A DNA stretch of 45,982 nucleotides. Source: a virus. The DNA lies in UHGV virus genome UHGV-0170246. The stretch is one strand, 5' to 3'. Position numbers and translations under genes: made by a program. Below the pieces are notes generated by a model. The model was not told the DNA's origin and ran no database searches. It was given only the letters and a program-made list of their open reading frames with translations. This document shows positions 3,304 to 29,154 of the stretch, piece by piece (within the stretch, counting starts at the first letter, position 1; each line of letters begins with the position of its first letter).

Positions 3304-3657
3304 TTGAGCATGTGGACGGTACTTTTTAGCCAGCGATTTGACGACTGGCTAAATGAGCAAGAAGACGCTCTTCAGGAAAAGGTTTTGGCTGATTTGAAAA
3401 AGCTACAGGTTTACGGACCTGAGTTACCCAGGCCATATGCCGATACCGTAAAAGGTTCTCGGTACAAAAATATGAAAGAGCTTCGCGTTCAGTTTTCTGG
3501 CCGTCCGATAAGAGCCTTTTATGCGTTCGATCCGATTCGCCGGGCCATCGTTCTTTGTGCAGGAGACAAAAGTAACGATAAACGGTTTTATGAAAAACTG
3601 GTGCGTATAGCTGAGGATGAGTTTGCAGCACATCTGAACACACTGGAGAGCAAGTAA
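3304..3657 (+). CDS. RelE/ParE-superfamily toxin, HigB-like (phage Gp49-like)
   Basis: 117 aa; toxin precedes an HTH antitoxin with TAATGA stop/start overlap at 3655-3660; family assignment from recalled pattern. Confidence 0.6.
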   Translation: MSMWTVLFSQRFDDWLNEQEDALQEKVLADLKKLQVYGPELPRPYADTVKGSRYKNMKELRVQFSGRPIRAFYAFDPIRRAIVLCAGDKSNDKRFYEKLVRIAEDEFAAHLNTLESK

Positions 3658-5645: not shown

Positions 5646-6791
5646 TTATGGTCTGCTTTTCTGTGCCAGCTTATCAGCACATGTTTTTATCAGATCCTGT
5701 AGTGTCCTGGCTGGCAGGTTTGCATCCAGTACGCTGAGTATGCTGTTGTGTTCTGCTTGGTCGACTACTTTGCCTGTCGGTGGTAGTAGCTTGAGCTGAG
5801 GATTCAGGTTTTCGTCAAAGCTGATAAGTGCTCTGGCGTTTCTGAGCAGATCAAGAAGTAAGGCTGATATCACATTTTCCTGAGTCATTGCTGGCAGACT
5901 TAGCGCCGCTTTGGTTTTCCCTGTTGCCTTGTCAAACTCCTTGATTAGTTCCTTCCTGTAGTTCGGTTCCGTTAATAGCCGATTATGCTCTGTTGCCGCG
6001 CGGATAATCGTTTTTTCCTGGTATAGTCGTTTAGCCAGATCACGCTCGTACTGTGTTTTTAACACGCTGCTGATAGCGTTAAAGGCTTCAATGTAGGCCA
6101 GCTTGATATCTTTCACGCTTGGACCGTCGATGCTCTCCATGAGCAAGGTAAATCCGTCTTTTGTCATGCGATAGATTGTTATTTCGCGGTCGCTTCCTTC
6201 CAGCGGTCGTTGCTCTTTAAAGAAGTGACGCGCCGCAGCTGTGCGAGGAATGCGTAACGCATCGATGGCCATAACGATGGAATTGTTTGTGGTGCTGAAT
6301 GCCTGGGCAACATCGGCTGAGGTTGTGAGTGGCTCGTTGTTGCACACCTTAATGTAATACATTGGTTTAGCGTTGAGCGTATCGACAACCTCACGAGCAT
6401 TGTTTGGTGAGACGGTTACGGTCGCGGCCGTTTGCGCGTTCTGGTTGAAGTAGCAGTCTTCCAGCCGTTCGAATACATCCCACGCCTGATCGGTTTCGAG
6501 CATTTTAGCGTGACGTGCAGCCCCGCGTTCTGTCCAGAGGATGAGGGAGCGGACTTTAGGTGAAACTGGATTTTGAGAGTAGTTTAAAGCTACCCGCAAT
6601 TCTTTAAGGTCATTACCAACAACTTTGAAAAAGTGTTTCCCTTCAACGAAACGTGCTTTGTTCTCATGATGATTCTGGCGAATACGCACCGGCTCAGTGC
6701 CGTAAAGCTGTGCTAGTAACTCGGTAGTAATGACAGGGATTTGGTTATGCAGGATAGGCTGTAGGGTGTTAACGGTCGGAAGCGTTTTCAT
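5646..6791 (-). CDS. Antirepressor-like protein (ORF6N-type N-terminus, Rha-like central region)
   Basis: 381 aa; N-terminal pattern PVITTELLAQLYGTEPVRIRQNHHENKARFVEGKHFFK and internal TTSADVAQAF segment typical of phage Ant/Rha-type regulators (recalled domain patterns). Confidence 0.55.
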   Translation of the reverse strand: MKTLPTVNTLQPILHNQIPVITTELLAQLYGTEPVRIRQNHHENKARFVEGKHFFKVVGNDLKELRVALNYSQNPVSPKVRSLILWTERGAARHAKMLETDQAWDVFERLEDCYFNQNAQTAATVTVSPNNAREVVDTLNAKPMYYIKVCNNEPLTTSADVAQAFSTTNNSIVMAIDALRIPRTAAARHFFKEQRPLEGSDREITIYRMTKDGFTLLMESIDGPSVKDIKLAYIEAFNAISSVLKTQYERDLAKRLYQEKTIIRAATEHNRLLTEPNYRKELIKEFDKATGKTKAALSLPAMTQENVISALLLDLLRNARALISFDENLNPQLKLLPPTGKVVDQAEHNSILSVLDANLPARTLQDLIKTCADKLAQKSRP

Positions 6792-6979: not shown

Positions 6980-7394
6980 GGTGATAGTTCCCTTAAAGGT
7001 TAAGGATACTCACCACCGTCTGGTTCCAATCATTGGGTGGTGAGACGTACAGGGTTGGAACTACCGGTCACCATGGAATCCGGCGAGTCTTACGACTCCC
7101 CCGCACGCCCCACCATAATTTGGGTGTAGCAGTGCTTTACGCATAAAAAAACCGCTAACGCGGTATGCGCCATGATGATTATCGGGGTTCCAATCCCGAC
7201 CGTAGATTTTGCTACGGCTCGGAAAGTGTCCACCAATGGCGCATTTATGTCAATACAGAGGGATTTTAACAGAGACAACCACATAGCGTGGGTTTATTGG
7301 TAGGCAGAAACAAAAAAACCGCCCTATTGAGGACGGTTCTTTCGTGCTGATCGGATTCGCGGTCCTTTCAGCATAACGTCGTTGTACTAATACA

Positions 7395-7414: not shown

Positions 7415-7644
7415 AACTACATTCTTACCCAACTGAGGTGAATAGTCCACTATTCATATAAAAAAATTTAGCTCATTAGCTCATGCAAAATGAAGGTTTT
7501 TAACTTATTTACGTGTAATCTCATGTAATAAAAGCGTTTTTTATTCCTTCATTATGAAGGGTATGACGTGTAATATGGCTTGGGGCCTTTCCGCCGATTC
7601 GCACCCGGGCACTGACTTTCAGGAAAGGATTATCCACTTGCCGT

Positions 7645-7664
7645 ACCACGCAGGCACAAACAGC
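7645..7664. repeat. Direct repeat copy 2 (ACCACGCAGGCACAAACAGC)
   Basis: See copy 1. Confidence 0.6.
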
Positions 7665-7728
7665 GTGCTTGCTCTCGCGTCATTTTCGTCGGTGGGGATG
7701 CCGTGAAACGGCCTGTAAGGGCCACACA

Positions 7729-7851
7729 ATGAAAAAATACTACATGTGTATTTTTATCGTTGTTACTGGAGCTTTGTTTACGCCACATGGGGAGGGTTGG
7801 AAGATTACTGATAACGCTCTGAATGTGACGATAAACATTAGCAGCAAGTAG
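7729..7851 (+). CDS. Possible small hydrophobic peptide (40 aa)
   Basis: In-frame ATG of ORF 7669-7851; one predicted transmembrane stretch (YYMCIFIVVTGALF); followed at once by a strong terminator; no recognisable family. Confidence 0.2.
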   Translation: MKKYYMCIFIVVTGALFTPHGEGWKITDNALNVTINISSK

Positions 7852-7856
7852 CGATT

Positions 7857-7880
7857 AGGCCCCTTCGGGGGCCTTTTTTA
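7857..7880 (+). terminator. Rho-independent terminator
   Basis: 7-bp stem AGGCCCC/GGGGCCT with TTCG tetraloop followed by TTTTTT. Confidence 0.75.
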
Positions 7881-19594: not shown

Positions 19595-19728
19595 AACATT
19601 CTATGCGCTTTTCTCATGGGCGCACGCATCAACCATGTTTGTCTGATATGCCGCCGCGCCCAAAAATCCTGAATTTATTGGCTGGGATTTTCGTGCGCGG
19701 CGCCACACCAGACAAACAAATCAAATAT

Positions 19729-19804
19729 GGCCCCTTAGCTCAGTGGTTAGAGCAGGCGACTCATAATCGCACGGTCATCGGTTCAAATCCGGTAGGGGCC
19801 ACCA
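19729..19804 (+). tRNA. tRNA with anticodon CAU (Met, or Ile2 if lysidine-modified)
   Basis: Hand-folded cloverleaf: 7-bp acceptor stem GGCCCCT/AGGGGCC, D arm, anticodon loop CTCATAA, T arm GGTTCAAATCC, encoded CCA; strongly resembles E. coli ileX as I recall it. Confidence 0.85.
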
Positions 19805-20111
19805 ATTCACTCTCACACATAAAGATAAGCGCGGTGGAGTTACTTCTTCGTGCTCATCTTTATGCGTGCCTGGTGCGCATTTCGGGCGAACGTGGGGCTA
19901 AGTTACAGGCAGGGCCTGTTATCCGCAAAGGGGTAAAAGCTGGAGCGGCACGGAACTGTAGCCGTGTTACCAAAACAGCGTTGTCGGGCGATATCCGGCA
20001 CACAACAGGCAAGGGCATTAATCAGTCTGGTTAGTGCCCTTTTCGTTGTGTTTGCTGTAGAGCTGGCCAGCGTTATGACTGCCGGAGATAAGCGCCGGAG
20101 GCACAATTAAC

Positions 20112-20699
20112 ATGGAGGCAATTGCATTGTTTAATCTGATTTATGCAGATCCCCCCTGGGAATACAAAGACAAGTGTAAGGATGGGAATCGTGGAGCTGG
20201 TTTTAAGTATCCAACGATGAAAGCTGAGGAGATTGCTCGTATTCCTGTCTGGCAGCTTGCTAATCCTGAATCGTGTTTGTTGGCCATGTGGTGGGTTCCG
20301 ACTCAGCCAGAAGAAGCGTTGCTGGTGGTTAAAGCATGGGGATTCAGGCTGATGACCATGAAGGGCTTCACATGGAACAAATGTGGTAGCCGACAACCAG
20401 ATAAGCTGGTGATGGGGATGGGGCATATGACTCGTGCAAACAGTGAAGATTGCTTGTTTGCGGTAAAAGGCAAACTGCCGACCCGTCTTGATGCGGGGAT
20501 CATTCAGTCGTTTACATCGCCTCGTCTGGAGCATTCTCGGAAGCCTGATGTGGTCCGTGACAAGCTGGTAAAGCTGTTAGGTGATGTTCCTCGTATTGAG
20601 CTGTTTGCTCGCGGTGATTTACCTGATGGCTGGCATGGCTGGGGCAACCAGTGCAATGGAGGTATCCAGTTGCATGATGCTCTCTGGCAAGTGGCATAG
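20112..20699 (+). CDS. MT-A70 family N6-adenine DNA methyltransferase
   Basis: 195 aa; DPPW catalytic motif (YADPPWEY) near the N-terminus. Confidence 0.8.
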   Translation: MEAIALFNLIYADPPWEYKDKCKDGNRGAGFKYPTMKAEEIARIPVWQLANPESCLLAMWWVPTQPEEALLVVKAWGFRLMTMKGFTWNKCGSRQPDKLVMGMGHMTRANSEDCLFAVKGKLPTRLDAGIIQSFTSPRLEHSRKPDVVRDKLVKLLGDVPRIELFARGDLPDGWHGWGNQCNGGIQLHDALWQVA

Positions 20700-20812
20700 A
20701 ATTATATAATTATAGATTTATATAAAAAGTGCTTTACAGGTGGGAAAAAAATTTCCTAAGGTTATACCCGAAACCGAGCGATACCCGCCCTGGTTAAACC
20801 GGAGATAACCCG
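20695..20812 (+). repeat. Conserved promoter/leader cassette, copy C (TTTACA at 20733-20738)
   Basis: Near-identical to cassettes A and B; ends at ATG 20813. Confidence 0.7.
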
Positions 20813-21082
20813 ATGAAAGTACAAGACCGTGAAGTAGTAAAAAACCTCCTGCAATACCTGACCTCAAAAAACCTGACGGGCAGCGTTGAGTTCCGTGAAG
20901 CGTTAAAACATTTCAACGTCACTACGGTTTATCGTTGGGAAAACGAACATTCTGAAAGACCGTATGTGGTGGATGTTTTTGCGCCTGATATTGAGTGCGG
21001 TTTTGAGCGTCATTCGTTCAAGGAGAAACATTCCGCTGATGTTTTTTGTGAGGTTGTATGTGCGGCAGGAGATGATGAGTGA
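20813..21082 (+). CDS. Hypothetical protein, first gene after cassette C
   Basis: 89-aa ORF with GGAG RBS in the conserved leader. Confidence 0.45.
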   Translation: MKVQDREVVKNLLQYLTSKNLTGSVEFREALKHFNVTTVYRWENEHSERPYVVDVFAPDIECGFERHSFKEKHSADVFCEVVCAAGDDE

Positions 21083-21279
21083 TGCGTATTTCCTTCAAAC
21101 GTGCGACTGAGCAGCAACGCAAAGAGTTCCTGGCTGATGATGTAGCGGCCGTTTATGACCTCATGAAAGAGGTTGTGGAATCAGGGAACTACACGGCGGC
21201 AAAGATGCTTAAACTGCAATTCTTGCTGGGCGACCTGAAATACAAATCCGAAGTTGTCGCCGGACGACGCGAGCATTAA
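21079..21279 (+). CDS. Hypothetical protein
   Basis: 66-aa ORF with ATGA overlap; followed by a terminator. Confidence 0.4.
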   Translation: MMRISFKRATEQQRKEFLADDVAAVYDLMKEVVESGNYTAAKMLKLQFLLGDLKYKSEVVAGRREH

Positions 21280-21302
21280 ACCGTAACGATAACGAACAAC
21301 GA

Positions 21303-21329
21303 GCCTCGGCAATTGCCGGGGCTTTTTTA
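21303..21329 (+). terminator. Rho-independent terminator
   Basis: Hairpin around the CCGGCAATTGCCGG palindrome followed by TTTTTT. Confidence 0.65.
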
Positions 21330-22861: not shown

Positions 22862-23533
22862 ATGACAAAACATCTTAATGTGGTTTCTTTACCACTTTCT
22901 GTGTTGATTGGTTATGAAAAGAACGCTCGCACACACTCCGTGGAGCAGGTAGATCAGATTGTTGCCAGCATACAGGAGTACGGATGGACTAATCCGATCC
23001 TGATAGACGAGAACAACGTTGTAATTGCTGGTCATGGTCGAATTGTTGCGGCCACTCAGTTGGGGATGGATGACGTTCCCTGCATTGTTCTGGAAGGGCT
23101 AACGGAGAATCAGAAGAAGGCATATCGTCTGGCCGACAACCGTATTCCGCTGAATGCTGGTTGGGATGAAGAGTTGTTAAGCGCGGAACTTGCAGATCTT
23201 GCGGCCGATGATTTTGCTCTGGACTCAATTGGTTTTACTCAGCGCGAACTGGATAACTTATTGAGTGCGGCGGTCTACGATGACACAGAGGGTATGGATA
23301 TCCCATTTGAGAAGGATGAGGCCAAATCAGGCGTAAAAGTTCAGTACCTGTCATTTGGAGGTCATAAAATCCCAGCAACGGATGGGAAGCGGATCGTTTT
23401 GACTGCGCGGTATCTCGTTATGTTGATGATAATGGCAGCTATATCGGATTTGTATCCGCATTGCTGGCTGGGGAGGTGTGCTGATGCTTCATCTCAATTA
23501 CGACATAACGCACCTACGCGGCGCGGAATATAA
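22862..23533 (+). CDS. ParB-like nuclease domain protein (paralogue 1)
   Basis: 223 aa; ParB/Srx motif AGHGR; about 55% identical by eye to the protein at 26151-26741 over the N-terminal ~130 aa. Confidence 0.7.
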   Translation: MTKHLNVVSLPLSVLIGYEKNARTHSVEQVDQIVASIQEYGWTNPILIDENNVVIAGHGRIVAATQLGMDDVPCIVLEGLTENQKKAYRLADNRIPLNAGWDEELLSAELADLAADDFALDSIGFTQRELDNLLSAAVYDDTEGMDIPFEKDEAKSGVKVQYLSFGGHKIPATDGKRIVLTARYLVMLMIMAAISDLYPHCWLGRCADASSQLRHNAPTRRGI

Positions 23534-24857
23534 CCCGCGTTTTATCGGTGAGGATGATCTTGCGAGGCTGGCGGAAAGCGTCAGGGAGCTGGGGCTTGTG
23601 AAGCCATTGATAGTGCGCGGCGATTTGCTGGTGGCGGGACACCAAAGGACGAAGGCGCTACGTAAGTTGGGAATAACGCGTGCTGCGGTGTATGTGTTGC
23701 CCTGTGAAACGACGGTATACGACGAAGTACGGTTTAACCAACTGCATAACGGAACGGATTTTGACAGCGGAGATGAGCGTTGCAGGGTGTCAGGTCTGGA
23801 AGATAAGCATGGTTTTGTTCAGGTATCGGCAAGCCAGATCTCAGGCAATATGCGCGCGAAAATGGCATATGTTCGAAAGAACATAGCGGAACTGGTTATC
23901 AAGTATGGGCCGTGGGGTGGTTGTGTTGCTACTCAGTCTGGTGAGGTTATTCACTGTGCTCAGTATGCATTAGCAGCGAAGATGACGCGCACACCGCTAA
24001 CGGTGTTTGTGATCCCTGATGTTGAGAAGGAAAAATACCAAAGTTATCTGAATAAAACTTATGGTGTATTTGAGTATTCTCACCTGGAGAAAACAACATA
24101 CATCCAGACGTATGCGCAGCTTATGCGGTTGCGTAATGGTGGCAGCCTGAAATCAAACCTGTATGAGTCGTTGATCCTCCCGATCATTGCCAAGACGCCA
24201 AGAGGAATTGATTTTGGTTCGGGGCAGGGAGACTACGCGCGAATGCTCAGGGCAAAGGGATATAACCTGCATGATCTAGAGCTTTTCCGCCGTAAGGGCG
24301 CTGGAAACACTCTGGATAGGACTGCAACAAACCGGATGATTGATACGCTGGTGGACGACTTAAAAACGCGAGGGCGTTACGACTACGTGATTTGCGATAG
24401 CGTTTTGAACTCGGTCGATAGTGTCGAGGCTGAATGGTCCGTTCTAACGGTTCTGAAAGGCCTGTGTAAAGCTGGTGGGTCAATATTCTTTTCTGGTCGT
24501 AGCCGTGGAGAGCTGGAAACAGTCCTGAAGCAAACACAAGCGGCGAGTTCCAAAAGCCGGCTTTATTTTATTGATCATAACGGTTTTACCGCGTTGTACC
24601 GGAAGGGGCACTGGTTTTACCAGAAGTTTCACTCTGATGATGAAGTGAAGCAGTTGTGTCGTGTACATGGTTTCAGGATTAAGCGGTCAATATTCAACTG
24701 TAAGAGCTGGTATTTGCACGTCATTAACGATGATTCCCTTAGTTGGGCGAGTCTGGAGAAAGCTGTTCGTTTTGAGTTTGAGTTGCCGTTGCCTGGTGGT
24801 TCAACAATCGGACGATCTGATGATGTGCTGGCGGCTTTCCGGCCGTTGATTAAGTAG
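23484..24857 (+). CDS. ParB-like N-terminal domain fused to a class I SAM-dependent methyltransferase-like domain
   Basis: GGGAGG RBS before ATG 23484; N-terminus LLVAGHQRTKALRKLG is ParB-like; C-terminal region has motif I IDFGSGQG, acidic post-I, hhhhD (YDYVICD) and GG motif; no DPPY-type motif seen. Confidence 0.55.
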   Translation: MLHLNYDITHLRGAEYNPRFIGEDDLARLAESVRELGLVKPLIVRGDLLVAGHQRTKALRKLGITRAAVYVLPCETTVYDEVRFNQLHNGTDFDSGDERCRVSGLEDKHGFVQVSASQISGNMRAKMAYVRKNIAELVIKYGPWGGCVATQSGEVIHCAQYALAAKMTRTPLTVFVIPDVEKEKYQSYLNKTYGVFEYSHLEKTTYIQTYAQLMRLRNGGSLKSNLYESLILPIIAKTPRGIDFGSGQGDYARMLRAKGYNLHDLELFRRKGAGNTLDRTATNRMIDTLVDDLKTRGRYDYVICDSVLNSVDSVEAEWSVLTVLKGLCKAGGSIFFSGRSRGELETVLKQTQAASSKSRLYFIDHNGFTALYRKGHWFYQKFHSDDEVKQLCRVHGFRIKRSIFNCKSWYLHVINDDSLSWASLEKAVRFEFELPLPGGSTIGRSDDVLAAFRPLIK

Positions 24858-24873
24858 TCTGTAGGAGGCGCTG

Positions 24874-25593
24874 GTGGCTGACAGAATTGAGATAAAGATT
24901 GATTTTTCTTCTCAGGATATTCAACGACAACTCCAGCGCCTTGAAGAACGCGAATTGCCGTTCGCAATGGCGCTTGCGGCAACCAGAACGGCAAAGGCTT
25001 CTCAGGCTGCGATTAAGAATGAAATTAATCGGGTATTTGACAGGCCCACGCCGTGGATTCAGAACTCTACTTACGTTTTGGCCGCAAAGAAGAGTGATCC
25101 TACAGCCATTGTGTATGCTCGTGAATGGGGAGGAACGCCAGCCCCTGTAACGTTGACTCCGCAAATCGAAGGTGGCCAACGACAGTACAAACGCTCAGAA
25201 GGGGCGCTAAGGGCTGGTGGATATTTGCCTAACGGCTGGCAGCTTGCTCCTGGTCCCGGCGCAAAGCTGGACAAATACGGGAATATTTCGCGGGGGCAAT
25301 TACAGCAGGTCTTATCTGGCCTAAGAGTTCAGCGAGATGTGCATCAAAATCGCCGTCAGGGCAAGCCTACGGAGTTTTTTGTTGTTCGACCTGGTACAAG
25401 TAACCCGCTTCAACCAGGCGTCTGGCAGCGCGTTGGGCGGCGTCCTACGTTGATCCTTACGTTTATCCAGCAACCTAACTATTCGCAGCGTCTTGATTGG
25501 CATGGCGTGGCGCTGCGTGCTGGTGAGGATGCGTTTGCTGATGAAGTCACAAAGGCTATTGATGACATTCTTTCTAAGACCTTCTCTCGTTAA
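24874..25593 (+). CDS. Hypothetical protein (239 aa) between ParB-domain genes
   Basis: GTG start with AGGAGG RBS; family not recognised. Confidence 0.45.
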   Translation: MADRIEIKIDFSSQDIQRQLQRLEERELPFAMALAATRTAKASQAAIKNEINRVFDRPTPWIQNSTYVLAAKKSDPTAIVYAREWGGTPAPVTLTPQIEGGQRQYKRSEGALRAGGYLPNGWQLAPGPGAKLDKYGNISRGQLQQVLSGLRVQRDVHQNRRQGKPTEFFVVRPGTSNPLQPGVWQRVGRRPTLILTFIQQPNYSQRLDWHGVALRAGEDAFADEVTKAIDDILSKTFSR

Positions 25594-25599
25594 TCATCG

Positions 25600-26150
25600 T
25601 GTGGTTGATGGTGTTGTTATGCAGAGTGTATTCACTGTGTTCTGTAGTGTCGCTCGCTGGCTGTCTGTGGGGGAGCACGAGCATCGTTTCATCGTCCGGC
25701 AGAATTGGGTCCTTCTGGCCAAAAGCGTTGGATGCGGGTCATTCGAACCCCGATGTTCGGCTAGCTAAACGTGAAAAAAGTTAGGTTAAAAGTTTCGGTA
25801 AAAGAAATTTACTCATCTCATTGAAAAACATCGGGAAAACGTGATTTTTTGCTGTGCTTGTGATGGTGAAAAGAAAGTAGAGAATTTTCTTTTAGATCAT
25901 CAAGATACGCGCAGATCTTTAACCAATGTAAGGCTGTTTTGATAAAAATCGTTATAAATCATGCAAATACATCCAATCTTTTAACCAAAACACCATATCA
26001 AGATCCTTTTTACTTATAAAAACTTAATAAAATCAGATGATTATTCTGGTTTGTGTGATTTTTTATGAGTAAAAAGATCGTCATTTTTCTCTTTTAGTAT
26101 CAATAAGTTAAACAGTTTTCTTTAACCTGTTGTGTTATGGCGGTTAAAAA
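25600..26150. promoter_or_regulatory. ORF-free AT-rich intergenic region with three copies of (A)TCTTTAACC; candidate late promoter and/or packaging (cos/pac) region
   Basis: Repeats at about 25916-25930, 25973-25990 and 26113-26125; lies upstream of the ParB-like and terminase genes. Confidence 0.3.
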
Positions 26151-26741
26151 ATGGCTCTAAAAATCGAATATTTACCAGTCGGTAAGCTGCTCAGATACGC
26201 CAAAAATTCACGGACTCATTCAGATGAGCAAGTTGAACAGTTGGTGAACAGTATCCGTGAGTTCGGTTTCACTAATCCTGTGCTGATCGATGAAAAGAAT
26301 GAACTGATTGCGGGGCATGGGCGGCTTGCAGCAGCCGAAATTCTGGAAATGGATAAAGTTCCAGCGATTCGGTTGAGTAACCTTTCTGAAAAACAGAAGA
26401 AGGCTTACAGGATTGCAGATAACAAGCTGGCCTTAAATGCTGGCTGGGATATGCAGCTTCTGGCCGAAGAAGTCAAAGCGTTAATGGATGATGATTTTGA
26501 TATTGATCTGCTTGGGTTTAATGATGCAGAGCTTGACGAAATGTTAAGCGATGAACAGCCGCAGGAAGAAGACGATAATTCTTCCCCTGTTGTTCAAATT
26601 AAGTACCTGGCTATTGATAAAGAACGTATTCCCGCGACGGATATGGAAATTGCATTGTTGCTGGATGTTTATCGTCAGTACCACGACGCGCATGAAACGC
26701 ATGAGGGATTTGTTCAGTATCTTGCTAATGGTTGCAAGTAA
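26151..26741 (+). CDS. ParB-like nuclease domain protein (paralogue 2)
   Basis: 196 aa; AGHGR motif; paralogue of 22862-23533. Confidence 0.7.
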   Translation: MALKIEYLPVGKLLRYAKNSRTHSDEQVEQLVNSIREFGFTNPVLIDEKNELIAGHGRLAAAEILEMDKVPAIRLSNLSEKQKKAYRIADNKLALNAGWDMQLLAEEVKALMDDDFDIDLLGFNDAELDEMLSDEQPQEEDDNSSPVVQIKYLAIDKERIPATDMEIALLLDVYRQYHDAHETHEGFVQYLANGCK

Positions 26742-27292
26742 TGGCCATCGTCAGTAAGTCAGAGTTTGCCCGCCGAAAAGGTATTTCTCCGGCAATGGTT
26801 ACGAAGCTCTGTCGTTCCGGTCGCATTCCAGTGCTGAAAAGCGGCAAGCTGGATTTTGATAAAGCTAGTGCGGCTTATGAAGCGAGCCGACAGGTTGGTC
26901 GTGAGGTATCTGCTGAAAATGGAAAAAGAGGGCATGGGATATCTTCGGAACAACCAGAGTTACCCGCTGATGATGCCGGATTAGCTGGTGGTACTTCCGG
27001 TGTTGCGGTGCAATTCAACAAGGCTAAGACCGCAGAAAAAATTTATCAGGCAAAGCTGAAACGCCTTGAATTTGAAGAAAAGGAAGGCTCTCTCATCGCT
27101 AAAGATGCGGTCAGGGATGATGCATTTCTGGCAGCTAATGAATTGCGTAGCCGCTTATTTAGTATTGCTCCAAGAGCAGCTCCCCGTTGTGAAGGCAAAA
27201 CAGCCAGGGAGATCGAACGCATTATTGAAGACGAGATTAATTTTGCGCTTCAGGCGCTCCAGGAATCCCGATTTATTAAGCAGGAAGAATAA
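26741..27292 (+). CDS. Terminase small subunit (Nu1-like)
   Basis: ATG overlapping the upstream stop (TAATG); N-terminal HTH-like SKSEFARRKGISPAMVTK; immediately precedes the large subunit. Confidence 0.6.
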   Translation: MAIVSKSEFARRKGISPAMVTKLCRSGRIPVLKSGKLDFDKASAAYEASRQVGREVSAENGKRGHGISSEQPELPADDAGLAGGTSGVAVQFNKAKTAEKIYQAKLKRLEFEEKEGSLIAKDAVRDDAFLAANELRSRLFSIAPRAAPRCEGKTAREIERIIEDEINFALQALQESRFIKQEE

Positions 27293-27297
27293 ACCTC

Positions 27298-29154
27298 ATG
27301 GGCGAAACAGTATGGAGCACCGCTTTTTTCCGTGCGCTTCGCCCTAAATCACGGCTAACTGTTTCCGAATGGGCTGATAAGTATCGTCATGTAGCGCCGG
27401 GAACGTCTCCAGAGCCAGGGCCGTGGCGTACAAGCCGAGTGCCATATTTGCGTGAACCAATGGATGTTATTGGTGACGCTGATACAGAAACAGTAGTGAT
27501 GCAATGTAGCTCGCAAATTGGTAAATCCGAATTACAGCTAAATGTTATGGGTTACTTTGCAGATCAGGAGCCATCTCCTCAGTTGATGATTTATCCAACG
27601 GTAGAGGCGGCTGAGGCTTTTTCAAAAGAGCGTATTGATCCGACGTTCAAATATTCCCCTGGTTTGAAACACAAGCTGCATGAAGGGAAAGAGGGGCGCG
27701 GTGCAGCCAAAAAGTCCAGCACGACTATACGTATGAAGCATTACGCTGGTGGATATATAGCACTTGTTGGTGCTAATTCCCCAGCAGGTCTTGCATCCAG
27801 GCCAATTCGAATACTGTTAGCTGATGAGATTGATCGTTACGGTGTGACGCAGGAGGGCGACCCACTAAAACTAGGTATTCAGCGTACTACCAACTTTCAT
27901 AATCGTAAGAAAGTTTTTGTTTCTACTCCTGTTTTGGAGGAAACGAGCAAAATCCACAAGTGGTTTAAGCTCTCCGATCAGCGTTACTACCATGTTCCTT
28001 GCCCATGTTGTGGCACCATGCAGGTGATGAAATGGTCGCAAGTCAGATGGGATAAGAGCGATTCAGGTGAGGCGTTACCGGAAACGGCCAGATATGAGTG
28101 CTGTGAGTGCGGCGGGATTATGCGCGGATCTGGTAAACCAGACGTTGATTGGTTGGCGAAGGGGGTATGGATAGCTGAACATACTGGAATTAAAGGTATT
28201 GTTGGTTTTCATATTAACAGTCTTTACTCCCCGTGGGTTGCATTGTCAGAGCTGGTTGAAGAGTTTACGGAAGCAACCAGAAACCGCGATAAAAATGGAT
28301 TAATGGAGTTTATTAACCTTAAGCTGGGTGAGCCATGGAAAGAGGATGCTAAAGACGATATCGATCCTGAATACTTGTTGCAACGCAGAATAAGGTTTGA
28401 AGAGTTTTTACCAGATGATGTTTTATTGTTAAGTGCTGGTGTTGACGTACAGGACACGTATTTAGTTTGTGAATTGGTCGGTTGGGGAAAAGGTAAGGAG
28501 TCATGGGGGATAGAATATAAAATATTCCCAGGTGATCCCGCACAAGATGTTGTCTGGAAACAACTTGATGAATACTTACTCCGTAGCTGGTCATTCCGTG
28601 ACGGTAGAAAATTACAGATTTCTTCCGTTTGTATTGACTCTGGTGGGCATTTTACGACAGAGGTATATCGCTTTACTAAGCCGAGAGAATCAAGGCGAAT
28701 ATACTCTATCAGGGGGCGTGGTGGGGTAGGTTTACCATTTATAGGAAAGCCAAGTAATAATAACCGTGTGGGTGCTATGTTGTTTAATTTGGGGGTTGAT
28801 GATGGTAAAGGGACCATCATGGCAAGAATTAAACTACATGATCCTGGTCCTGGTTATATGCATTTCCCATTAGATTCTGACAGAGGATATGATACCGAAT
28901 ACTTTAAAGGATTATTATCAGAGAAAAAAATATTTGAATATAAAAATGGGCAGACAAAAGAAAAGTGGGTGAAAGTCTACGAGCGTAACGAGCCTCTTGA
29001 TTGCCGTAACTATGCAACTGCCGCGATGGAAATTCTGAACCCTAATTTTAACTGGCTTGCCGAACAGGAAATGCGAGGTAATGTGTATGTGCAGAACTCG
29101 TCAGGTATACGTAGAAGACGCCGTAGAGTTATAAGTAAAGGCGTAACCATATAG
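27298..29154 (+). CDS. Terminase large subunit (lambda GpA family)
   Basis: 618 aa; N-terminal GpA-like pattern with P-loop CSSQIGKSE. Confidence 0.85.
   Translation: MGETVWSTAFFRALRPKSRLTVSEWADKYRHVAPGTSPEPGPWRTSRVPYLREPMDVIGDADTETVVMQCSSQIGKSELQLNVMGYFADQEPSPQLMIYPTVEAAEAFSKERIDPTFKYSPGLKHKLHEGKEGRGAAKKSSTTIRMKHYAGGYIALVGANSPAGLASRPIRILLADEIDRYGVTQEGDPLKLGIQRTTNFHNRKKVFVSTPVLEETSKIHKWFKLSDQRYYHVPCPCCGTMQVMKWSQVRWDKSDSGEALPETARYECCECGGIMRGSGKPDVDWLAKGVWIAEHTGIKGIVGFHINSLYSPWVALSELVEEFTEATRNRDKNGLMEFINLKLGEPWKEDAKDDIDPEYLLQRRIRFEEFLPDDVLLLSAGVDVQDTYLVCELVGWGKGKESWGIEYKIFPGDPAQDVVWKQLDEYLLRSWSFRDGRKLQISSVCIDSGGHFTTEVYRFTKPRESRRIYSIRGRGGVGLPFIGKPSNNNRVGAMLFNLGVDDGKGTIMARIKLHDPGPGYMHFPLDSDRGYDTEYFKGLLSEKKIFEYKNGQTKEKWVKVYERNEPLDCRNYATAAMEILNPNFNWLAEQEMRGNVYVQNSSGIRRRRRRVISKGVTI

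Follow-up and report, generated by a model that had tools for sequence, protein, structure and literature searches.

The gene at 20112..20699 of the window (the whole 45,982-nt stretch of viral DNA analysed here, UHGV-0170246) encodes an intact orphan adenine methyltransferase of the MT-A70 family, and the element that carries it is a phage-plasmid, which is neither an ordinary phage nor an integrated prophage. In the explanation that we favour, and in which we place an even degree of confidence, the protein is an active, self-sufficient, stand-alone DNA N6-adenine methyltransferase that modifies the phage-plasmid DNA in lytic growth. The first-pass annotation had described an orphan phage methyltransferase; the family, the motif and the orphan status stand, and the carrier has to be corrected from simply a phage to a phage-plasmid. 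Public E. coli plasmids already have an identical, annotated copy of the gene, which belongs to an ordinary, very common family of orphan phage methyltransferases. The features of the gene itself are listed here.

20112..20699, + strand: MT-A70 family (beta-class) SAM-dependent N6-adenine methyltransferase gene, an ATG-started ORF of 195 aa
20097..20101, + strand: Shine-Dalgarno-like GGAGG, 10 nt 5' of the methyltransferase ATG, by direct sequence reading
20148..20159, + strand: codons of catalytic motif IV, D13-P14-P15-W16, by direct sequence reading

The product of the intact ORF matches the Pfam family MT-A70 (PF05063) over its full length, with residues 7-180 aligned to positions 1-172 of the 172-position profile (E=2.9e-23; 83.1 bits against a cut-off of 23.9 bits), and this match is far beyond chance. 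The DPPW motif occupies residues 13-16, and the DPPW-motif adenine methyltransferase that the first-pass annotation proposed at 20112-20699 is confirmed. The product also matches PHROG 359, "DNA methyltransferase" (2.7e-102), and the REBASE-derived PADLOC model MTase_II (7.6e-69), and is identical to the RefSeq entry WP_025667974.1, "MT-A70 family methyltransferase". In the Pfam search at E<=0.01, no family besides MT-A70 is found for the protein, and the Dam sequence families are unmatched. Across an alignment of 35-37 homologues, P14 and W16 do not vary, and conservation of D13 and P15 is at least 90%; S142-x-K144-P145, E163-x-F165-x-R167 and G178-N179 are likewise invariant among the homologues and align to MTA1.

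The motifs are arranged in a permuted order, in which DPPW (residues 13-16) comes first, at the N-terminal end of the domain, and the SAM-binding elements are C-terminal. Among proteins of solved structure, those closest in sequence are Tetrahymena MTA1 (2.9e-13) and human METTL3 (2e-6), and the DPPW, S-x-K-P, E-(I/L)-F-A-R and G-N motifs of the window protein align with those of both at an identity of approximately 24%. The AF2 model calculated from an alignment of 35 homologues has a pLDDT of 81.6 and a pTM of 0.83, with a single low-confidence loop at residues 101-109, and a Foldseek search with this model returns METTL3 (E 3e-14, TM 0.72) and MTA1 (rmsd 2.7 A), both at a probability of 1.00. 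The profile match, the motifs and the model place the protein among the circularly permuted beta-class amino-methyltransferases of the MT-A70 family, with a predicted METTL3/MTA1-type Rossmann-like fold. Additionally, the gene is under purifying selection, with 7-8 synonymous and 1-2 conservative non-synonymous codon differences between alleles within the phage-plasmid lineage. A horizontal-transfer signature around the gene was considered and rejected, the GC content there being unremarkable.

The methyltransferase gene lies downstream of a holin/GH108-endolysin/spanin cassette and a tRNA, and on its downstream side come, in order, five small ORFs without an assigned function, a group of three ParB/Srx-like genes, a gene of minor-tail type and the terminase genes. 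The features nearest to it are given below.

19729..19804, + strand: tRNA (CAT anticodon), 307 nt 5' of the methyltransferase gene (tRNA-Met by ARAGORN; Rfam tRNA, 67 bits)
20011..20041, + strand: terminator-like hairpin in the interval between the tRNA and the methyltransferase (pattern scan, consensus match only)
20813..21082, + strand: 89-aa ORF
21079..21279, + strand: 66-aa ORF
21301..21324, + strand: terminator-like hairpin ending the methyltransferase-orf89-orf66 block (pattern scan; 10 pairs, 7 of them G-C, then a T tract)

Searches of the neighbours within approximately 6 kb of the methyltransferase against Pfam, PHROGs and PADLOC matched no restriction-endonuclease or defence model, and no restriction enzyme is present among all 64 RefSeq features of a plasmid with a 100% identical methyltransferase gene, in which the sole nucleases are a Ref-family recombination enhancer and a DUF1064 protein. 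These results bear out the earlier statement that no endonuclease adjoins the gene. The gene is not part of a type II restriction-modification system, in which a cognate endonuclease would lie beside the methyltransferase. The 89-aa and 66-aa ORFs match PHROG 6143 and 6621 (both of unknown function), and neither ORF has a match in Pfam or PADLOC. The tRNA, which RefSeq names tRNA-Ile on E. coli plasmids (an assignment that would require lysidine modification of the CAT anticodon), resembles tRNAs in Pectobacterium, Klebsiella and Salmonella phages; a functional link between it and the methyltransferase was rejected, as no tRNA is found beside the homologues in 36 other loci.

The element exists as a plasmid of approximately 46-52 kb that contains a complete P2-like myovirus, including a P2-like contractile tail, together with the following genes of plasmid life and immunity.

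About 1011-1847: RepA, plasmid replication
8569-9237, - strand: ParA, partition
3304-3657 (toxin): RelE/ParE toxin with an HTH partner, forming a toxin-antitoxin pair
129-683: invertase, adjoining the tail-fibre genes
7033-7120 and 7145-7218, both - strand: C4 antisense RNA and isrK-like RNA (Rfam, 84 bits and 70 bits)
5646-6791, - strand: ORF6N/Rha antirepressor gene, with the C4 and isrK-like RNAs directly upstream

Together, the C4 RNA, the isrK-like RNA and the antirepressor make up an immI immunity module of the P1/P7 type, although the element that carries it is not P1. A full-length match to the ryfA sRNA family is also present nearby at 7581-7879 (+), with 135 bits against a gathering score of 80, in a region that holds no ORF of at least 100 aa. 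Window-wide, GATC (0.63 observed/expected) and GTAC (0.69) are under-represented, beyond the usual depletion of CTAG (0.39).

The window is 98-99% identical to the Yersinia phages vB_YpM_39, vB_YpM_41 and vB_YpM_44, in the records of which all genes are annotated "hypothetical". The 1.7-kb region around the methyltransferase (19600-21300) matches pGPT24-02-C, a circular E. coli plasmid of 46,125 bp, at 99.9% identity, and the methyltransferase gene itself is 100% identical. A search of 5,426 complete E. coli genomes found the gene for the large terminase subunit in 72 of them, with 74 of its 75 places on plasmids, and the methyltransferase region is present in 64 E. coli genomes of the approximately 71 that have the phage-plasmid (approximately 90%); the methyltransferase is a near-core accessory gene of the element, whose usual size in Escherichia and Yersinia is 46-49 kb. 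At 97-100% identity, the gene is found in 58 plasmids, which include the 48,488-bp plasmid of ATCC 25922 (allele WP_000387271.1) and plasmids of E. albertii, E. fergusonii and Klebsiella aerogenes. The Yersinia-phage form of the element forms plaques on Y. pestis, and the host range of the phage-plasmid is broad. A literature search found no publications on vB_YpM_39 or on the lineage of the phage-plasmid.

More than 6,400 proteins match the methyltransferase at E<=1e-5, under source names such as "MT-A70 family methyltransferase", "S-adenosylmethionine-binding protein" and "adenine methylase". Homologues are present in 515 phage records, of which approximately 120 are Stx2-converting phages with an identity of 72-73%. 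The gene occupies two positions in 33 loci of Enterobacterales genomes, one beside the integrase, often after a PerC-like gene, and the other in the nin region, a few kb before the lysis genes and next to a gene that was labelled RusA-like from a reading of its sequence. The position after the lysis genes is peculiar to the phage-plasmid. No conserved neighbour, whether an endonuclease, ParB, PNB-2 or any other gene, accompanies the homologues in the 33 loci and in several phages, which indicates that solitary occurrence is the rule for this MT-A70 phage family; the shifting contexts fit an enzyme that acts without a dedicated partner.

A comparison of segment identities between the window protein and its homologues reveals a mosaic structure with one distinct central segment.

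20373..20561, + strand: central variable segment of the mosaic gene, "type A", aa 88-150

Residues 7-87 are 90-91% identical to the homologues P0003 and P0005 of a Salmonella-type sub-lineage and 75% identical to P0006. The relation is reversed in residues 88-150, which share 57% with P0003 and P0005, 86-89% with P0006, P0010 and ZX5, and 79% with the enzyme of the Stx phage phi345, and residues 151-181 are again closer to P0003 and P0005 (77-81%) than to the ZX5/Stx-phage type (68-71%). Judged by these identities, the gene is a recombinant, with its flanks and its centre drawn from two sub-lineages of the family. The centre has one of two alternative versions of the variable loops and includes the loop at 101-109; by analogy with other beta-class enzymes, aa 88-150 would be the expected target-recognition region.

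The best-studied relative is the Stx-phage enzyme M.EcoPA8orf6770P, to which the window protein is 72.6-73% identical over residues 7-181. Gong, Chakraborty and Koudelka reported that disruption of this enzyme lowers spontaneous induction and virulence and that a DPPW to APPA mutant does not complement, the in-vivo effect being lost (PMC10810198). The purified enzyme alone has near-background activity on both RNA and DNA, dam-negative DNA included, but when bound to PNB-2, which the gene upstream encodes, it uses RNA more than 13-fold better than DNA, and the complex prefers 16S rRNA in 30S subunits (PMC10810198). Isoforms shorter by the 27 C-terminal residues are noted in strains devoid of PNB-2 (PMC10810198). 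As cited in that paper, the highly similar M.EcoGV of E. coli O104:H4, when over-produced alone, methylates GATC in vivo (PMC10810198). M.EcoGV is also listed with GATC specificity, and one Stx prophage has a homologue of M.EcoGV alongside a true homologue of Dam (PMC6602927); their joint presence argues that the two enzymes are not equivalent.

PNB-2 (143 aa) and PNB-1 were located in phage PA2 by means of the terminator sequence quoted in PMC10810198. A tblastn search of the whole window with PNB-2 of PA2 found no homologue (best E=3.4), and PNB-2 is absent from all 33 of the other genome loci. The window methyltransferase has 195 aa against the 208 aa of the Stx-phage enzyme, and residues 182-195 are only 7% identical. 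The window copy thus lacks both marks of the PNB-2-dependent holoenzyme, an adjacent PNB-2 gene and the C-terminal tail of approximately 27 aa, and is one of the partner-less, tail-less forms. The absence of both makes the rRNA route less likely for this copy, which does not in itself prove a DNA substrate. Further tblastn searches of the window with PNB-1, PerC and the 76-aa upstream protein of phi345 gave a match only for the ORF6N domain of PNB-1, which falls in the antirepressor at 5646-6791 (-) and is unrelated to the methyltransferase.

The 89-aa ORF was considered as a PNB-2-like partner and rejected: besides having no match in Pfam or PADLOC, it is removed by an in-frame deletion in vB_YpM_41 (L042 2814-3035 against window 20813-21279), which joins its first seven codons to the next ORF according to both annotation and sequence. 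vB_YpM_44 gives the same two-piece match at this ORF, and both plaque-forming phages keep the methyltransferase despite the loss. Homologues of the 89-aa ORF exist in only 6 phage records, with its position beside a methyltransferase seen for the same lineage only, and its single-sequence AF2 model (pLDDT 52) is unusable.

Downstream of the methyltransferase, the packaging region contains the following genes.

22862..23533, + strand: ParB/Srx-like protein 1 (PHROG 620, 1.6e-69)
23478/23484..24857, + strand: fusion of ParB_N and a class-I SAM methyltransferase domain, Methyltransf_23 (Pfam; PHROG 5475 of unknown function, 1.6e-265)
26151..26741, + strand: ParB/Srx-like protein 3, directly before the terminase genes (Pfam ParB_N, 4e-8; PHROG 620, 1.1e-74)
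26732-27292, + strand: terminase small subunit (terminase pair 26732..29154; PHROG 57, 7.4e-42)
27298-29154, + strand: terminase large subunit (RefSeq "phage terminase large subunit family protein")

Three ParB/Srx-fold paralogues are packed ahead of the terminase genes (22862-26741), one of them as the Methyltransf_23 fusion. The second methyltransferase-like domain that had been noticed at 23484-24857, fused to ParB, is indeed present: Methyltransf_23 (8e-8, 32.6 bits, cut-off 27) lies behind ParB_N (3.2e-5, 24.3 bits, just below the cut-off of 26.3), and RefSeq names the product "ParB N-terminal domain-containing protein". Its Methyltransf_23 domain is not obviously a DNA amino-methyltransferase, since no (D/N)PP(W/Y) motif is apparent on reading the sequence. 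The same architecture is reported to be enriched in prophages (PMC12704722). The two stand-alone ParB copies resemble the ParB part of ParB-methyltransferase fusions (PHROG 498 at 5e-50 and 7e-52; PADLOC MTase_II at 3e-37 and 1e-40) far more than partition ParB. Relative to pGPT24-02-C and vB_YpM_39, ParB/Srx-like protein 1 has a 1-nt deletion near 23385 that shifts the frame of its last approximately 30 residues and creates the overlap with the next gene; the deletion reflects an error of sequencing or else a mutation that inactivates the gene.

Iyer et al. described loci of ParB and the terminase large subunit with methyltransferases and predicted that these modify phage DNA during packaging (PMC4738411). 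In the window, the methyltransferase fused to ParB beside the terminase is that of 23484-24857. The MT-A70 gene has the same orientation but is separated from the first ParB gene by 2.2 kb and from TerL by 7.2 kb, and the interval contains unrelated ORFs as well as terminator-like hairpins. An AT-rich spacer of 556 bp (25594-26150, GC approximately 0.32) precedes ParB3-TerS-TerL and could hold a late promoter or a packaging site; a GATC cluster in it was considered as a methylation-controlled pac or ori and rejected, the four AGATC present not being significant against approximately 1.8 expected.

For the MT-A70 enzyme we infer a DNA substrate, a motif, a time of expression and a benefit. The protein most likely acts on DNA, alone or as a homo-oligomer. 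Its transcription is probably by read-through with the late (lysis-to-packaging) genes, since it shares their strand, no sigma-70-like promoter is predicted on that strand between 19000 and 23000, and terminator-like hairpins lie at 20011-20041 and 21301-21324. The replicating phage-plasmid DNA would be methylated before encapsidation, likely at GATC, as reported for the 73%-identical M.EcoGV, or at a similarly short motif. Fully modified DNA would enter the next host, possibly of another genus, where it may be protected from restriction or from nucleases that attack under-methylated DNA. Such a benefit is consistent with the spread across genera and with the predicted modification at packaging (PMC4738411), and a modification enzyme would be of use to an element that passes between hosts with different restriction barriers. 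Restriction protection and packaging control, the usual roles named in the first-pass annotation, are only the conventional default for an orphan enzyme, and the closest tested relatives point to conflicting substrates.

The evidence on the DNA substrate and on GATC points in both directions. The "type A" central segment, common to the window protein and the Stx-phage/M.EcoGV-type enzymes, would support a DNA substrate and GATC. Against DNA, the nearest purified enzyme barely acts on it, and a protein of 195 aa has little room for a target-recognition module; against GATC, the assignment as cited for M.EcoGV derives from over-expression. To our knowledge, all known hosts of the phage-plasmid already have Dam, and GATC methylation by the element would thus be largely redundant. 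Lambda has no methylase and P1 has its own Dam. The window has an observed/expected GATC ratio of 0.63, compared with 0.55 for lambda and 0.80 for P1, a weak indicator with one genome per class; the depletion in the window is near that of lambda and further from that of P1, which counts weakly against GATC.

An alternative that we consider unlikely is that the enzyme methylates host 16S rRNA or another stable RNA, and that it adjusts translation and thereby the choice between maintenance as a plasmid and lytic growth. It draws on the 73% identity to the Stx-phage enzyme over residues 7-181 (79% in the "type A" centre), on the more than 13-fold RNA preference of that enzyme with PNB-2, its 16S rRNA target and the spontaneous induction that it raises (PMC10810198), and on the presence of the mRNA methyltransferase METTL3 among the closest solved structures. 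However, the RNA preference is conferred by PNB-2, which neither the window nor the 33 loci contain, the tail that Gong et al. associate with PNB-2 is missing from the window protein, the modified rRNA base was never identified for the Stx-phage enzyme (PMC10810198), and MTA1, the second of the top structural relatives, methylates DNA. The methyltransferase could also be the catalytic half of a split ParB-methyltransferase, recruited by one of the three ParB/Srx-like proteins 2-6 kb downstream so that methylation is coupled to terminase packaging. ParB_N-MT-A70 fusions do exist: PHROG 21315 (415 positions) is matched by the methyltransferase at 238-407 (1.8e-23) and by both stand-alone ParB proteins at approximately 24-94 (2e-5 and 8e-5), which also strongly match the ParB part of fusion families (PHROG 498, PADLOC MTase_II), and methyltransferases are on record in a locus of ParB and the terminase large subunit (PMC4738411). 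Nevertheless, no ParB is found near the methyltransferase in the 33 other genome loci or in the Stx and ZX5 phages, five unrelated ORFs and two terminator-like hairpins separate the genes in the window, and one ParB copy is frameshifted there, and we regard a split enzyme as very unlikely.

That the gene is a functionless or decaying passenger is highly improbable: although the Stx-phage homologue alone is almost inactive in vitro (PMC10810198) and comparable prophage methyltransferases of E. coli EC958 are silent (PMC4659465), the window gene has an unbroken reading frame and a good ribosome-binding site, its product retains every catalytic and core residue, the substitutions are mostly synonymous, and the gene is kept in approximately 90% of the copies of the element. 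A broader departure from DNA protection, to which we assign a small probability, would make the protein a PNB-2-independent RNA (rRNA or tRNA) or single-strand-specific enzyme that sets the balance between carriage and lytic growth, or the catalytic subunit of a split ParB enzyme that marks DNA at packaging, with the mosaic centre as a specificity module that can be swapped among temperate phages. A self-sufficient DNA methyltransferase active in lytic growth remains the reading that we prefer.

The MT-A70 family is among the commonest accessory genes of enterobacterial temperate phages, and the substrate of its small phage enzymes is disputed between GATC in DNA and 16S rRNA with PNB-2. The window copy, whose gene also resides on a small extrachromosomal element of the standard laboratory strain ATCC 25922 and in Yersinia phages that form plaques, offers a natural partner-less, tail-less test case for this question.

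The orphan N6-adenine DNA methyltransferases P1 Dam/Dmt, T4 Dam and M.EcoVT2Dam keep phage DNA fully methylated for packaging or protection. These are alpha-class Dam enzymes of a family other than MT-A70, and the analogy with them underlies the earlier reading of protection or packaging. Tetrahymena MTA1 (DNA 6mA) and human METTL3 (mRNA m6A) share the Pfam family and the predicted fold of the window protein; they are, however, obligate heteromers with an inactive paralogue and accessory proteins, and no such paralogue is encoded in the window. ParB-methyltransferase fusions, with an N6_N4 or Methyltransf_23 domain, lie just upstream of prophage terminase genes (PMC4738411, PMC12704722), and one is found at 23484-24857; unlike these, the MT-A70 protein has no ParB domain and does not adjoin the ParB genes. 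The closest known system is M.EcoPA8orf6770P (gp5 of the Stx2 phage phiPA8/PA2), with the near-identical M.EcoGV, which has in common with the window protein the DPPW MT-A70 core, a temperate element as carrier and the lack of a cognate endonuclease. The PA2/PA8 enzyme differs in its length of 208 aa with a C-terminal tail of approximately 27 residues, which the window copy lacks, and in being co-transcribed with and bound to PNB-2, which is missing from the window. The settings differ as well: the gene of the Stx enzyme occupies the integrase end of a lambdoid prophage in its integrated state, the window gene follows the lysis genes of a phage-plasmid, and the N-terminal third of the window protein comes from a different sub-lineage than that of the Stx enzyme.
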